Below, one piece after another: positions 6,056-62,055 of a stretch of DNA of 64,000 bases (within the stretch, counting starts at the first letter, position 1; each line of letters opens with the position of its first letter). This DNA comes from Escherichia phage WG01: the sequence record NC_031928.1; one strand, given 5' to 3'. The notes under the pieces were generated by a model. That model was not told the DNA's origin. It saw nothing but the letters and a program-made list of their open reading frames with translations, and searched no databases. Position numbers and translations under genes: made by a program.

Positions 6056-6097
6056 GTTGATAGGGTAATAGTATCACACTACTACCCTGTTGTATAC
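6056..6097 (-). promoter_or_regulatory. early promoter cassette (variant -35 GTATAC)
   Basis: Conserved motif GTTGATAGG-TA-ATAGTATCA...-35 upstream of 5819..6037. Confidence 0.5.
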
Positions 6098-6692: not shown

Positions 6693-6731
6693 CCATGAGA
6701 GCCATTATAACATGGCCCTCGATAAAGTAAA
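6693..6731 (-). promoter_or_regulatory. early promoter (GTTTAC -35, TTATAAT -10) with inverted repeat
   Basis: gtaaac at 6726-6731 and attataa -10 region; flanking ccatgagag/ctccatgag repeat upstream of 6110..6661. Confidence 0.45.
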
Positions 6732-7283: not shown

Positions 7284-7789
7284 AATTTTCTCATTTCAAT
7301 AAAATCTACGAGTTCGGCATAGGATTTGCGGAACATTAATTGTCGGCCACCGATGACAACCTCATCTTCTGGTATTTCGTAAACAGCAAGATAGAATCCT
7401 TTAGAAGATAATTCTTCACGCTCTTCACGAGTGAACCAGCGCATCATATCATACTCGCTGGCAAAAGCAAAATGGTAAAGATTAACAAACCAACCTGGAA
7501 TATAATCATCACAGCCTTCATAATCAGGCTGGTTCCACTTAGTTCGAATGGTTTTATTAGAATTTTCCACCAACAACTTGTCTTGACTTGGTAGTGGAAT
7601 ATTTTTATTATTGGTATGATGGTGTCTAAAATTAGGTCTGTCGAAACCTACTTCCAATAACCAACCTTCACTCCATTCGTCAAATGAGCCTCTATACGGG
7701 GTTAATTGGCGGCATTGTTGTCGAGTGATTGCGATAACATCGCTGTTGTCTAGGATACTGAACGATGACTCCACTCGATAAATTTTCAT
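7280..7789 (-). CDS. hypothetical protein
   Basis: 169-aa ORF with own early-promoter cassette; no recognised motif. Confidence 0.5.
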   Translation of the reverse strand: MKIYRVESSFSILDNSDVIAITRQQCRQLTPYRGSFDEWSEGWLLEVGFDRPNFRHHHTNNKNIPLPSQDKLLVENSNKTIRTKWNQPDYEGCDDYIPGWFVNLYHFAFASEYDMMRWFTREEREELSSKGFYLAVYEIPEDEVVIGGRQLMFRKSYAELVDFIEMRKL

Positions 7790-7803
7790 TTTGTTCTCCT
7801 CAT

Positions 7804-7845
7804 GTTGATAGGGTAGATAATATCATGTCATGAGGAGAAGTAAAC
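7804..7845 (-). promoter_or_regulatory. early promoter cassette with perfect inverted repeat CTCCTCATG/CATGAGGAG
   Basis: GTTGATAGGGTAGATAATATCA core, gtaaac 7840-7845. Confidence 0.55.
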
Positions 7846-7849
7846 ACTT

Positions 7850-12523: not shown

Positions 12524-12526
12524 ATG

Positions 12527-12576
12527 ACCTCCAGTGATTTAGAGGTCATTATAACATGAAGGGAGGAGGTGTAAAC
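12527..12576 (-). promoter_or_regulatory. early promoter (modB) with inverted repeat
   Basis: gtaaac 12571-12576, TTATAAT -10, tgacctc/gaggtca repeat. Confidence 0.5.
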
Positions 12577-12997: not shown

Positions 12998-13488
12998 TAG
13001 TAACCACCGATAGGGCCGTAACCGTACATACGAGCTCGTAACTTAGCATCACGAATAGCTTCTTCGGTCGGGGTAAAACGCAATCCAATATCAAAGTGTT
13101 TCCAAATCTGACGTTCTACTTCCATCAGGTCTTCGACGGCAGAAATCAGATAAGTACGACCTTTAAGACGTTCGTTGGACATTCTATCGGTATCTTTATA
13201 GAAAATGTCCATTGTTCCTTCAGCATACGGGTCAGCCGGATAACGATAGCCTTTGATATGCAAGGCTTGAGCCACACTAAAAGGACAACCCTCAGCAACA
13301 TCAACGTTTTGATTATGGCGTACTTTCATCATAACATTTTCTGGAAGCTTAATATCTTTTAAGTGCGTTTCTAACTGGGTGATAGAATTCATACCGTTGT
13401 CAACAAGGATAAGACTTACCGTAGCATCATAAGGACGCGTTTGTCCGGCAGAATCACGAACAAAGAATTCTAGTTCATAAACTTTCAT
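12997..13488 (-). CDS. hypothetical protein
   Basis: 163-aa ORF with AGAGGAAAT RBS. Confidence 0.5.
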
Positions 13489-17935: not shown

Positions 17936-17978
17936 AGTTGATAGGTCCATAGTATCACTACCATAGACCGTTGTAAAC
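17936..17978 (-). promoter_or_regulatory. early promoter cassette (sp)
   Basis: GTTGATAGGTCCATAGTATCA core, gtaaac 17973-17978. Confidence 0.55.
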
Positions 17979-39230: not shown

Positions 39231-39298
39231 AATAATTTCCTCAGTTTTAAAGTTATAATCCGTAGGACCATTATACTCTGGTCCCAAGAGTTTGTAAA

Positions 39299-40189: not shown

Positions 40190-40368
40190 GATTTAATTTC
40201 CTTAGCTACTGAACAAAATAAAGAACGGTCGCACACCATCAATGGAGCATCAGGGTGAGTCAAAGGTTGATACCATACATCGAGATTTGTTACCTTTGTT
40301 ACTTGAACAGGGTAGCCATTTACTGAATAATACTGGTCGGCTTTAATTTCTTTATCTTGGATAGTCAT
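40186..40368 (-). CDS. hypothetical protein
   Basis: 60-aa ORF downstream of promoter cassette 40385-40426. Confidence 0.45.
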   Translation of the reverse strand: MTIQDKEIKADQYYSVNGYPVQVTKVTNLDVWYQPLTHPDAPLMVCDRSLFCSVAKEIKS

Positions 40369-40384
40369 AATGTTCTCCTCATGT

Positions 40385-40426
40385 GTTGATAGGATAGACT
40401 ATAACACGTGAGGAGAGGAAGTAAAT
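40385..40426 (-). promoter_or_regulatory. early promoter cassette with inverted repeat CTCCTCATGTG/CACGTGAGGAG
   Basis: GTTGATAGGATAGACTATAACA core; -35 variant gtaaat. Confidence 0.5.
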
Positions 40427-46504: not shown

Positions 46505-47029
46505 TTATGCGAGAACCGTCTTTAAACGCTCTTCAAATTTCTGAAGCAGAGCTTGGCGTTCAGCTCGTTGTGATTTGTACTGCTCGATACGACCTGAAGT
46601 GAGGGCGTACTGTTCGTTTACTGATTCCCGCATGAATTCAGGAATCTCTTTACAAGCTTTGATTTCGTCAAACTTATCAATAACAGCTTGTTGTTCAGCA
46701 ATCAGATTATCGAAATAAGCGATATCAGATTTAACGTTTGCCAGGTCAGATTCGGTAGGCATTAAACGTTTGTTACGTTCAGCTTGATAAGCTTGATTGG
46801 TTTCACGACTCCAGTGAAGAGTACGTTTTTTGTTAGTGTTTTTATAGAGCTCTACAATACCAACTGAATCGATGACAACAATCCAGTTCCAACGGCTTTT
46901 GTAAATCTCTCCTCCAGATACAGTAATCTCATTACCACAAGCAACGTCGTTAAAGAACTTGCTTTGTTTTTCGGATTTGAAATTACCATTGTTATAATTG
47001 ATGAGTGAAAAAATATCTTTAGCGTTCAT
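46505..47029 (-). CDS. hypothetical protein with C-terminal coiled coil
   Basis: 174-aa ORF preceded by promoter cassette 47043-47084. Confidence 0.5.
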   Translation of the reverse strand: MNAKDIFSLINYNNGNFKSEKQSKFFNDVACGNEITVSGGEIYKSRWNWIVVIDSVGIVELYKNTNKKRTLHWSRETNQAYQAERNKRLMPTESDLANVKSDIAYFDNLIAEQQAVIDKFDEIKACKEIPEFMRESVNEQYALTSGRIEQYKSQRAERQALLQKFEERLKTVLA

Positions 47030-47042
47030 GTTAACCTCCAGT

Positions 47043-47084
47043 AGTTGATAGGTCTATAGTATCATTTCTACTGGAGATGTAAAC
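47043..47084 (-). promoter_or_regulatory. early promoter cassette with covarying inverted repeat CTCCAGTAG/CTACTGGAG
   Basis: GTTGATAGGTCTATAGTATCA core, gtaaac 47079-47084. Confidence 0.55.
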
Positions 47085-47086
47085 AA

Positions 47087-48445: not shown

Positions 48446-48484
48446 TGATAGGTCTATAATAACATGTTTAAAGCAGATGTACAC
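48446..48484 (-). promoter_or_regulatory. early promoter cassette copy 1 (-35 GTGTAC)
   Basis: TGATAGGTCTATAATAACATGTTTAAAGCAGATGTACAC, near-identical to copy at 48758. Confidence 0.5.
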
Positions 48485-48757: not shown

Positions 48758-48796
48758 TGATAGGTCTATAATAACATGTTTAAAGCAGATGTACAC
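48758..48796 (-). promoter_or_regulatory. early promoter cassette copy 2 (-35 GTGTAC)
   Basis: Near-identical ~39-bp duplicate of 48446-48484. Confidence 0.5.
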
Positions 48797-55083: not shown

Positions 55084-55542
55084 TTAAAGATAGATTACTT
55101 TCGTGCTGGTTTTACCTTCTAAACGTTTAGAGTTAACAAATGCCATACGACATTTAAGGGAATATCCTTTATCAGGATGTTTACGGTCTACAGTCATACC
55201 TAGCCATAAGGTTTTATCGGTAATTTCGAGACGCAATGGGCGATACACTTTACCAGGAATGATTTCGGCTTCTACATCAGGCAGAGGTTCCTGGATTAAA
55301 AATTCATGAATTTCTTTAACATGGTTATGGAGTTGCTTGAATAAAGCAAAAACGTATTTTTCGTCGATTTCACGTTGGATAGCACGGTCCAACAAGTGAT
55401 TAGAGTACTTAATAAAGAAGGCTGGGACTCCGCTCTTAATGGCGGCTTTTTTGATGGACGCATTCAGTTCACGGAATTCGGTTTCGAACTGACGACGTAA
55501 TTTATTGCGGCGGATGAATACTTCTGAATTAATTTCTGACAT
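55084..55542 (-). CDS. regB: RegB site-specific endoribonuclease
   Basis: 152 aa from ATG 55542; EVFIRRNKLRR...KYSNHLLDRAIQREIDE...RLEITD closely matches recalled T4 RegB. Confidence 0.85.
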   Translation of the reverse strand: MSEINSEVFIRRNKLRRQFETEFRELNASIKKAAIKSGVPAFFIKYSNHLLDRAIQREIDEKYVFALFKQLHNHVKEIHEFLIQEPLPDVEAEIIPGKVYRPLRLEITDKTLWLGMTVDRKHPDKGYSLKCRMAFVNSKRLEGKTSTKVIYL

Positions 55543-55557
55543 TTTGTAATCTCCTGT

Positions 55558-55599
55558 AGTTGATAGGTTTATAGTATCATACCTACAGGAGATGTAAAC
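55558..55599 (-). promoter_or_regulatory. early promoter cassette (regB) with inverted repeat CTCCTGTAG/CTACAGGAG
   Basis: GTTGATAGGTTTATAGTATCA core, gtaaac 55594-55599. Confidence 0.55.
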
Positions 55600-55603
55600 T
55601 GCT

Positions 55604-57736: not shown

Positions 57737-58144
57737 AATAGCCTTGCCGTAATGTTTGTACCAGGTAGAGCGTTGTGCAATTTTTTCGTCCAAACGGGCC
57801 TGAGATATAGCAATAGAAGCTTCGTGTGGAGTATAGTCACCACGGAATTCCTGAGGAATGTCACTAATGTCCTGGACAGTAGTATCCTTGATATTAAAAC
57901 CACGTTTTAAACATTCGGCTATAAGCTCAATTTGTCGCTTACGTAAAAATTCAAGCTTATCGTAAAAGAATGTAACATGGCCTGTGCCAAGGATAAAAGT
58001 AGGACTGATTTTGAAATCACGGACACGTTTACCATTAGCAACATGCTTACGAACTGCACCGAAAACACGTGGTAATTCACGATATTCAGCCATTAAGTGT
58101 TGGTCAGCCAATTCAGATACTAAGGTAAGGTTGATACGAGTCAT
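57728..58144 (-). CDS. denV: endonuclease V (pyrimidine-dimer DNA glycosylase)
   Basis: 138 aa; essentially identical to recalled T4 DenV ([41 protein letters not shown]...). Confidence 0.95.
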
Positions 58145-58150
58145 TTTTAA

Positions 58151-58200
58151 TCTCCTGTAGTTGATAGGTCTATAGTATCATGACTACAGGAGATGTAAAC
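58151..58200 (-). promoter_or_regulatory. early promoter cassette (denV) with inverted repeat CTCCTGTAG/CTACAGGAG
   Basis: GTTGATAGGTCTATAGTATCA core, gtaaac 58195-58200; repeat arms flank the -10. Confidence 0.6.
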
Positions 58201-59302: not shown

Positions 59303-59783
59303 ATGCTTTCCAAGTACCTGTTTTAAATGTTGAAATCACGCGCTTAGCACGATTAGGAGTTTGTTTATACCAACGGGATTGAGCCAGGTTAACTGCCGCA
59401 TCGTTCCAACGTTTCTGTTGGAGCATACGTAAAGAGTTAGTGAACCCTGCTACGCCTGCTTCACCCATTTGGAAGACCATGTTAATTAAAGCACAACGAC
59501 GAACTTCGTCCAGTACATCATAAACAGGTTTCAATTTAGGATTACGCAGAATAGCTCTACGAGCATTTTCAACCGATCGGTTAAAGAGTTGTTCAGCTTC
59601 AGCCATAGTAATACGACCATTACAAACTCGACCCATAAGCTTATCAAGTTCAGCACGAGCAACATCTTTAGAAGGGTTCTTAGTAATCAATTGGCCAATG
59701 CCAATAGTCCAATAACCTTCAGTGTCTTTATAAAGATTTAAATCAAGACCTTCGTCTTGACGTAACATATCAAAAATATCCAT
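59289..59783 (-). CDS. e: lysozyme (endolysin, T4 lysozyme family)
   Basis: 164 aa; catalytic region [11 protein letters not shown] and [32 protein letters not shown] nearly identical to recalled T4 lysozyme. Confidence 0.95.
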
Positions 59784-59787
59784 AATA

Positions 59788-59813
59788 CCTCCTGAGTATA
59801 GGAGGTATTTATA
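59788..59813 (-). promoter_or_regulatory. gene e late promoter TATAAATA embedded in SD-sequestering hairpin
   Basis: Minus-strand TATAAATA CCTCCT ATACTC AGGAGG TATT ATG; same architecture as described for T4 gene e. Confidence 0.7.
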
Positions 59814-62014: not shown

Positions 62015-62055
62015 TTTGATAGGTCTATAGTATCACACCTATAGACCTTGTACAC
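62015..62055 (-). promoter_or_regulatory. early promoter cassette (-35 GTGTAC variant)
   Basis: TTGATAGGTCTATAGTATCA core with aggtctatag/ctatagacc repeat. Confidence 0.5.

Follow-up and report, generated by a model that had tools for sequence, protein, structure and literature searches.

In phage T4, the Shine-Dalgarno (SD) sequences of genes e, soc, 49 and I-TevI are sequestered in early or middle read-through RNA and are freed in transcripts from a late promoter that lies inside the hairpin (PMC3014915). The hairpin of T4 gene e lowers lysozyme synthesis 100-fold (PMC3014915). Ribosome-binding site hairpins of homing endonuclease genes, namely Aeh1 mobE and T4 segB, are named as well (PMC3014915). 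These likewise sequester the SD and limit translation from upstream transcripts in T4-type phages; unlike the cassettes described here, they go with mobile endonuclease genes and with middle or late promoters. The name PeSL was given to a reiterated early promoter with SD, ATG and stem-loop that serves as a recombination site; it is the same object as the cassettes of this study (Arbiol 2010, PMC2839356; Comeau 2014, PMC4122927). The PeSL stem-loops were described as terminators or attenuators and, in T4/PST, were drawn upstream of the promoter.

The start of the IS10/Tn10 transposase gene is reportedly shielded from external promoters by fold-back sequestration, as Davis, Simons and Kleckner are said to have found in 1985 (cited in PMC13181058). 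In IS10, read-through RNA from outside includes a segment, upstream of the start used by the element itself, that pairs with the ribosome-binding site; this segment is missing from RNA of the element's own sigma-70 promoter. The IS10 structure is single and element-specific, whereas the arms reported here form a covarying family over many genes, and the IS10 arm is not inside the promoter spacer, unlike that of class A below.

We analysed the window, i.e. the whole stretch of 64,000 nucleotides from Escherichia phage WG01 (NC_031928.1), where three classes of inverted repeat were distinguished in early-promoter cassettes. Classes A and C resemble T4 e, soc, 49 and I-TevI in having a 5' arm upstream of the proximal start and a 3' arm over the SD and AUG, and the class C arm directly follows the -10, as the gene e arm follows the -10-like element of its promoter. 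The T4 late systems use the gp55 late promoter and delay expression, whereas the window cassettes use a sigma-70 early promoter and their arm would limit expression to the earliest minutes. In the window cassettes the arm is also usually located in the -35/-10 spacer, unlike in the T4 late-promoter hairpins.

The early-promoter case is absent from the list in the 2010 T4 review (PMC3014915), and neither PeSL paper describes spacer-SD pairing or a translational role (PMC2839356, PMC4122927). We found no account of an early-promoter spacer that pairs with the SD in the papers on PeSL and RegB or in two T4 reviews of 2010. On hairpins between early promoter and SD in T4, the literature covered yielded the late-promoter cases and PeSL only; the 2003 T4 genome review and older print (Liebig and Rüger 1989; Mosig 1998; Repoila 1994) were outside its scope. 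The masking logic is known from T4 late promoters and IS10, and the cassettes are known as T4 early promoters and PeSLs, but an SD-masking arm at early promoters does not seem to have been described before.

Early-promoter cassettes of the window

The window is the rIIA-to-e region of a T4-like Tequatrovirus with its genes on the minus strand, and the closest genome was that of phage QL01 (97.6 % identity across 94 % of a 24-kb query). T4-type early promoters were recognized by a GTTTAC -35, a spacer of 16-18 nt, often TGn, a TAnnnT -10, an SD and a same-strand start codon. When the pattern GTTTAC, 17 nt, TACTAT was searched with up to 2 mismatches, 20 matches were obtained in the window against 7.8 expected, and a scan that also demanded an SD and an ORF start codon gave 25 minus-strand cassettes, all with the T4-type early (sigma-70) layout. 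The CTATCA(A/G)C box was present in 16 of the 25. An initial annotation of this DNA had counted at least 20 copies of a ~45-bp cassette, a number that is right for the promoter but too high for the full consensus with its box. The layout agrees with the published T4 early consensus (GTTTAC at -36 to -31 and -10 at -12 to -7; PMC1524935), from which the transcription start was predicted about 7 nt after the -10. The cassettes also have the features of PeSLs, namely a reiterated early promoter with SD and ATG, plastic regions and an associated stem-loop. Promoter annotation is absent from the T4 records NC_000866 and AF158101, and Rfam 15 at gathering score gave zero matches across the entire window.

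The comparative set consisted of 216, later 330, unique cassettes from T4, RB69, IMG/VR and metagenome loci, and the orthologous loci of regB, denV, motB.2 and the gene of the 47084 cassette. The metagenome scan supplied just 32 new cassettes, many of its matches being unrelated.

Two cassettes at 48768-48796 and 48456-48484, which are 312 bp apart, have identical -35, spacer and -10 sequences (GTGTAC atctgctttaaacatgt TATTAT) and different leaders. SD pairing is absent from both, and the pair looks like a recent promoter duplication or conversion.

Cassettes with an arm complementary to the SD

Class A consists of five cassettes (denV, regB, 47084, 40426 and 7845) in which an SD-complementary arm of 11-14 nt directly follows the -35 hexamer. 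The class A and class C cassettes and the hairpin of gene e (lysozyme), which served as internal positive control, are as follows.

58142..58200, minus strand: denV class A cassette; -35 GTTTAC at 58195-58200, -10 TACTAT at 58172-58177, ATG at 58142-58144
58184-58194 and 58150-58160, minus strand: denV 5' arm ATCTCCTGTAG and 3' arm CTACAGGAGAT; predicted start at about 58165
55540..55599, minus strand: regB class A cassette; -10 at 55571-55576, ATG at 55540-55542
55583-55593 and 55549-55559, minus strand: regB 5' arm ATCTCCTGTAG and 3' arm CTACAGGAGAT, identical to the denV arms
47027..47084, minus strand: 47084 class A cassette; 174-aa gene, function not assigned
47068-47078 and 47034-47044, minus strand: 47084 5' arm ATCTCCAGTAG and 3' arm CTACTGGAGGT; one U·G pair
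40366..40426, minus strand: 40426 class A cassette; 60-aa gene (T4 55.6 region)
40403-40416 and 40374-40387, minus strand: 40426 5' arm TCTCCTCACGTGTT and 3' arm AACACATGAGGAGA; one C·A mismatch
7787..7845, minus strand: 7845 class A cassette; motB.2-like gene
7829-7839 and 7794-7804, minus strand: 7845 5' arm TTCTCCTCATG and 3' arm CATGAGGAGAA
12521..12576, minus strand: class C cassette; predicted start at about 12541
12542-12549 and 12524-12531, minus strand: class C 5' arm ATGACCTC (-10 end and discriminator) and 3' arm GAGGTCAT (SD to ATG)
59781..59813, minus strand: gene e late-promoter hairpin; TATAAATA at 59806-59813, ATG at 59781-59783
59801-59808 and 59785-59792, minus strand: gene e 5' arm ATACCTCC and 3' arm GGAGGTAT; -12.2 kcal/mol

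The genes below the 58200 and 55599 cassettes are phrog_1183 (endonuclease V, denV) and phrog_1323 (endoribonuclease, RegB). At denV, the minus strand of 58142-58200 reads GTTTAC ATCTCCTGTAG tcatga TACTAT agacctatcaa CTACAGGAGAT taaaa ATG; its duplex (-20.2 kcal/mol; hairpin -19.7) was the best of 25 non-cognate comparisons. The duplex energies of the other members are -18.7 (regB, 55599), -18.8 (47084), -18.3 (40426, with a hairpin of -20.1) and -18.9 kcal/mol (7845), and the 47084 arms differ from those of denV and regB by a compensatory T/A to A/T change. The arm pairs cited in the initial annotation for denV, regB, 47084 (CTCCAGTAG with CTACTGGAG) and 7845 are all present. The pair cited at 40385 also exists but had been mis-transcribed; in the real arms, TCTCCTCACGTGT and ACACATGAGGAGA, one internal position is a C·A mismatch.

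The 5' arm of the 12576 cassette (class C) precedes the predicted start. This layout is shared with many denV orthologues, where GTCCTCC pairs with GGAGGAC, and its geometry at early promoters is that of the gene e late-promoter hairpin. The lysozyme of the window is divergent; the T4 N-terminal peptide found no match and gene e was located through the ORF list.

Among the denV orthologues, the class C layout was seen about 60 nt before position 601 in L166, L172, L175 and L178-L180. A class C pairing that includes one U·G pair (ATGATAGCTTC/GAGGCTATCAT) is also present at the T4 modB promoter (locus L001, ~13130-13186). The behaviour of modB RNA towards RegB resembles that of a structured mutant RNA (Durand 2006, PMC1702504).

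Statistical tests of the pairing

When the -35 plus spacer of each window cassette was paired with the 5' leader of each cassette, the five class A cognate pairs each ranked first or second against 24 non-cognate partners (cognate versus permuted pairs, p = 1e-4). Strong spacer-to-SD pairing (-18 to -20 kcal/mol) was present in five of the 25 cassettes and moderate pairing in about four, with none in the remainder. The observation is thus real but concerns about 20 % of the window cassettes, and the statement that many copies carry the SD complement was too broad. In the comparative set, with one representative for each gene cluster, pairing of -15 kcal/mol or lower was found in 9 of 105 clusters against 1.1 expected from non-cognate pairs (p < 5e-5). 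The overall prevalence is about 7-10 % of gene clusters, or about 10-20 % of cassettes.

A conditional test was applied to 43 unique arm pairs, namely those in which the start of the spacer carries CTCC and the SD carries GGAG. Their flanks pair at 5.0 of 8 positions, a value attained by none of 2000 shuffles, and seven distinct inner 5-mers are perfectly complementary. Chance or composition, by which a TCTCC spacer consensus and a GGAGA SD would pair by default, was ruled out by the permutation, chimera and conditional tests.

RNAalifold on 16 selected cassettes retrieved the helix, and 8 of its 10 pairs showed compensatory changes; 85 % of the cells were paired, compared with 69.7 % after shuffling (0 of 500 reached the observed value) and 48-57 % in slid registers. 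As this alignment had been chosen for pairing, the unselected tests carry the weight. Compensatory covariation of the arms, the lack of which had been named as evidence against masking, was significant among paralogues as well as orthologues. Cassettes recombine as units according to the PeSL literature, and some shared arms are therefore inherited rather than independently evolved.

SD-complementary sequences (-12 kcal/mol or lower) were located at -36 to -1 in 15 of 142 clusters, at -72 to -37 in three and in the first 36 nt of the coding sequence in one. When the best stems were located with every mismatch type penalised equally, sense-strand G·T exceeded A·C in unique stems (23 versus 6, p = 0.001), although at the level of stem families the counts were just 12 versus 5 (p = 0.07). 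The G·T bias and the placement of the SD complement fit a sense-RNA structure that is deliberately kept out of the gene's own transcript.

Orthologous promoters in other T4-like phages

On comparison of the sequences, the orthologous promoters are the strongest evidence for what appears to be a selected pairing. Those of denV and regB retain the pairing through at least seven different arm sequences, and differing arms that still pair were found in regB orthologues of 59-99 % and denV orthologues of about 60-99 % protein identity. At regB, ATCTCCTGTAG/CTACAGGAGAT in the window is replaced by TTTTCCTCTTGACTG/CAGTTAAGAGGAGAA with two G·U pairs in T4, and by TTCTCCTCTAGTTG/CAACTAGAGGAGAA and TTTCTCCTCTTTAT/ATAAAGAGGAGAAA in other phages. 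At denV there are at least five versions of the spacer arm (ATCTCCTGTAG/CTACAGGAGAT, TTCCTCCAAG/CTTGGAGGAA, ATCTCCGTTTG/CAAACGGAGAT, TTCTCCTGTAGATG/CATCTACAGGAGAA and TCTCCTGTG/CACAGGAGA) and one discriminator version, in which GTCCTCC directly after the -10 pairs with GGAGGAC. The T4-type orthologues of the motB.2-like gene (7845) have other arms (TTCCTCGGTTAGT... with ...CTACTGAGGATAA) of the same energy, -17.4. The same arms occur in T4 (regB and denV) and in RB69.

The pairing is not universal. It is absent from denV in L166-L167 and from the 47084 orthologue in L042, where the promoter half was swapped independently of the SD half; promoter halves are exchanged between orthologues. Because some orthologues lack the pairing, and because of an uncompensated arm mutation in L253, the pairing is dispensable.

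In L253 (47084 orthologue), the 5' arm (ATCTCCATTAG), which lies about 55 nt before position 601, has a single G replaced by T with no counterpart in the SD flank, and the duplex falls from about -18 to -11.6 kcal/mol. This natural variant is a possible test case.

The arms could also be a DNA-level feature or a historical by-product, for example a cruciform, a site of recombination (PeSL shuffling or endonuclease VII targets) or an inheritance from duplicated cassettes. The cassettes are known recombination sites (PMC2839356, PMC4122927), the denV and regB arms are identical in the window, and the promoter half can move apart from the SD half, as in the 47084 orthologue of L042. We nevertheless regard this explanation as highly improbable: the differing arms at orthologous genes are each self-complementary, cognate pairs outdo chimeras, an excess of sense-strand G·T over A·C is not expected of duplex DNA, and the placement is tied to the SD and the start site.

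Proposed masking of the ribosome-binding site

The predicted class A hairpins have 11-14 bp and -17.7 to -20.1 kcal/mol, and so exceed the gene e hairpin of the window (-12.2). In the minimum free energy folds, an inner TGATA/TATCA helix joins the extended -10 to the conserved box and an outer TTTAC/TAAA extension runs up to the AUG, and the class A helix is longer than had been described in the initial annotation. The inner helix has 5 bp in read-through RNA, and its two motifs co-occur as one conserved block.

At 58162-58181 and its equivalents in the TGATACTAT...CCTATCAAC cassettes, the TGATA of the extended -10 complements the TATCA of the CTATCAAC box at the start.

Relative to the predicted start, the 5' arm is located at about -30 to -20 in class A and -8 to -1 in class C. 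The 3' strand covers the SD and AUG and the 5' strand lies upstream of the predicted proximal start, in agreement with the initial annotation, by which a gene's own transcript would lack the upstream arm. Since the class A arm sits between -35 and -10, the prediction of the start site hardly matters there. On folding, with the own-promoter RNA begun 7 nt after the -10, the mean unpaired probability from SD to AUG was 0.16-0.36 in read-through RNA and 0.53-0.79 in own-promoter RNA, as would be required for a hairpin over the SD in read-through transcripts.

We consider it somewhat probable that some of the sigma-70-type early-promoter cassettes also act as translational insulators. This is the masking logic of the initial annotation narrowed to a subset of cassettes, and the masking interpretation is partly supported, with the read-through logic as what seems to be the best explanation. 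The intended extension of the gene e logic to early genes finds the same layout and stronger predicted hairpins, but in a minority of the cassettes rather than in many. The spacer, or in some orthologues and at 12576 the discriminator, would carry an arm that resembles an anti-SD, is made up of TCTCC and 4-9 gene-specific bases, and is complementary to the SD of the gene served by the promoter. The gene's own mRNA would have a free SD because polymerase starts about 30 nt downstream of the arm. RNA arriving from upstream, be it read-through of the delayed-early, middle or late kind or the product of an early promoter further upstream, would contain both arms and fold the helix of 11-14 bp, which, when extended inward by TGATA/TATCA and outward by TTTAC/TAAA, would make the SD inaccessible as far as the AUG. 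Translation of the gene would then be confined to the time when its own early promoter is firing. A likely secondary effect would be Rho-dependent polarity on the untranslated read-through RNA, and masking together with this probable polarity would explain how the device could substitute for a terminator.

We also considered that the helix shields long transcripts from nucleases, either by hiding GGAG from RegB or as a 3' stability barrier, so that polycistronic RNA survives while the monocistronic early RNA is cleaved. The GGAG of early SDs is cut by RegB, which secondary structure inhibits, 16 RegB-resistant GGAG sites of T4 are in stable structures (PMC1702504), the regB mRNA is itself a RegB target (PMC3014915) and the arms centre on GGAG. 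However, the T4 denV SD is resistant to RegB in vivo through sequence 3' of GGAG (PMC1702504) and yet has a full hairpin, by which RegB shielding as the general cause is weakened. The class C and gene e hairpins likewise use GAGG/GGAGG SDs without a link to RegB. Nuclease protection in place of masking is thus very unlikely in our judgement, and it would in any case be compatible with SD masking.

In class A, 1-24 nt separate the end of the upstream ORF from the -35 (24 nt at denV), and none of the five cassettes has an upstream intrinsic terminator. For these two reasons, upstream transcripts should cross the cassettes.

The stop codon of the upstream gene is 1-4 nt before the -35 in four of the five members of class A (7846-7849, 40427, 47085-47086 and 55600-55603). 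The cassette is therefore the entire intergenic region there, and terminating ribosomes would come near the outer helix. Such a position could point to translational coupling, in which ribosomes terminating on the upstream gene open the helix and translation of read-through RNA depends on that of the upstream cistron. Against this, the core 5' arm begins 7-10 nt past the stop, at or beyond the reach of a terminating ribosome as judged from known footprints, which would open just the weak outer TTTAC/TAAA extension; moreover, the SD is about 45 nt downstream and the denV stop is 24 nt away. We give coupling hardly any probability.

Class B repeats and upstream terminators

In class B, an inverted repeat encloses the -10.

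62021..62048, minus strand: class B inverted repeat; AGGTCTATAG at 62039-62048 with CTATAGACCT at 62021-62030
39265-39284, minus strand: class B copy
17944-17969, minus strand: class B copy
6697-6720, minus strand: class B copy
6062-6088, minus strand: class B copy

The mid-spacer pairs with the -10 end and discriminator, the SD is left open, and the repeats match the published PeSL stem-loops. Class B is commoner than the SD-masking class (cognate enrichment in 27 of 105 clusters against 9.9 expected) and covaries as well (AGGGCTAT/ATAGCCCT, GACAAGACTA/TAGTCTTGTC and GGGACC/GGTCCC). It occupies the spacer position of class A and replaces it at orthologous regB and 47084 promoters. As class B swaps with class A and yet leaves the SD open, SD masking cannot be the whole story; it explains classes A and C, not all promoter-embedded repeats.

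True terminators were found directly upstream of five other window cassettes (51680, 48796, 18926, 14436 and 2823). In the comparative set, promoter-embedded hairpins and upstream terminators were anticorrelated (1 of 35 versus 25 of 107 clusters, Fisher p = 0.003), which suggests that they are alternative ways of handling incoming transcripts.

The proposed PeSL function, transcription attenuation or termination of incoming polymerase with an incidental SD overlap, has to be weighed here. The published stem-loops of RB49 and phi1 are, as in class B, located in the -35/-10 interval or across the -10 (Arbiol 2010, PMC2839356), and one of them cut lacZ as strongly as rrnB T1 (PMC2839356), but a drop in lacZ cannot tell termination from a translational or polarity effect. 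The mutual exclusion of hairpins and upstream terminators and the interchange of classes A and B at orthologous promoters would also suit attenuation. In the sequence itself, however, the hairpins of classes A and B are not followed by a U-tract, which makes intrinsic termination unlikely; either arm is followed by ...GGAGATTAAAAATG or ...AGACCTATCAAC. Class A does not have the form of an intrinsic terminator, given its loops of 20-24 nt and the TAAAAATG that comes after the helix. A terminator would also need neither the 3' arm of classes A and C to be always centred on GGAG/GAGG nor the complement to be placed only upstream of the start site. Attenuation as the function of these hairpins is therefore unlikely, and masking of the SD is still preferred for classes A and C.

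Significance of the cassettes

We suggest, tentatively and as the less probable side of the question, that the early cassettes of T4-type phages are self-contained, context-independent expression modules, each with one of three interchangeable devices to neutralise incoming transcripts. These would be an upstream intrinsic terminator, a hairpin enclosing the -10 and an anti-SD arm that ties translation to initiation at the gene's own promoter. If true, such 'promoter-coupled translation' would help to switch off early proteins, RegB and DenV among them, once the early promoters are shut down, and it would explain the free shuffling of cassette-plus-gene units between genomes. In T4, the reference system for phage gene regulation, the shut-off of early protein synthesis is still described as incompletely understood (PMC3014915). 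Besides promoter shut-off and RegB cleavage, the anti-SD arm would be a third level of control, through which early genes could no longer be translated from the long middle and late transcripts running across them. The mobile PeSL cassettes would also acquire a concrete function as insulators, and synthetic operons a compact design rule, namely translation from the proximal promoter only. As T4 regB and denV carry the same arms, the proposal is directly testable in T4.

A different arrangement was observed in the denV relatives of jumbo phages (L184-L186 and L191; contigs of 345-378 kb). Their -35, TTGACT, is inside the stem of a terminator-like hairpin (GGGTTGACTTCGGTCAGCCC, then T5, then GCTATAAT) about 70-30 nt before position 601, and terminator and promoter thus appear to overlap at denV in these phages.
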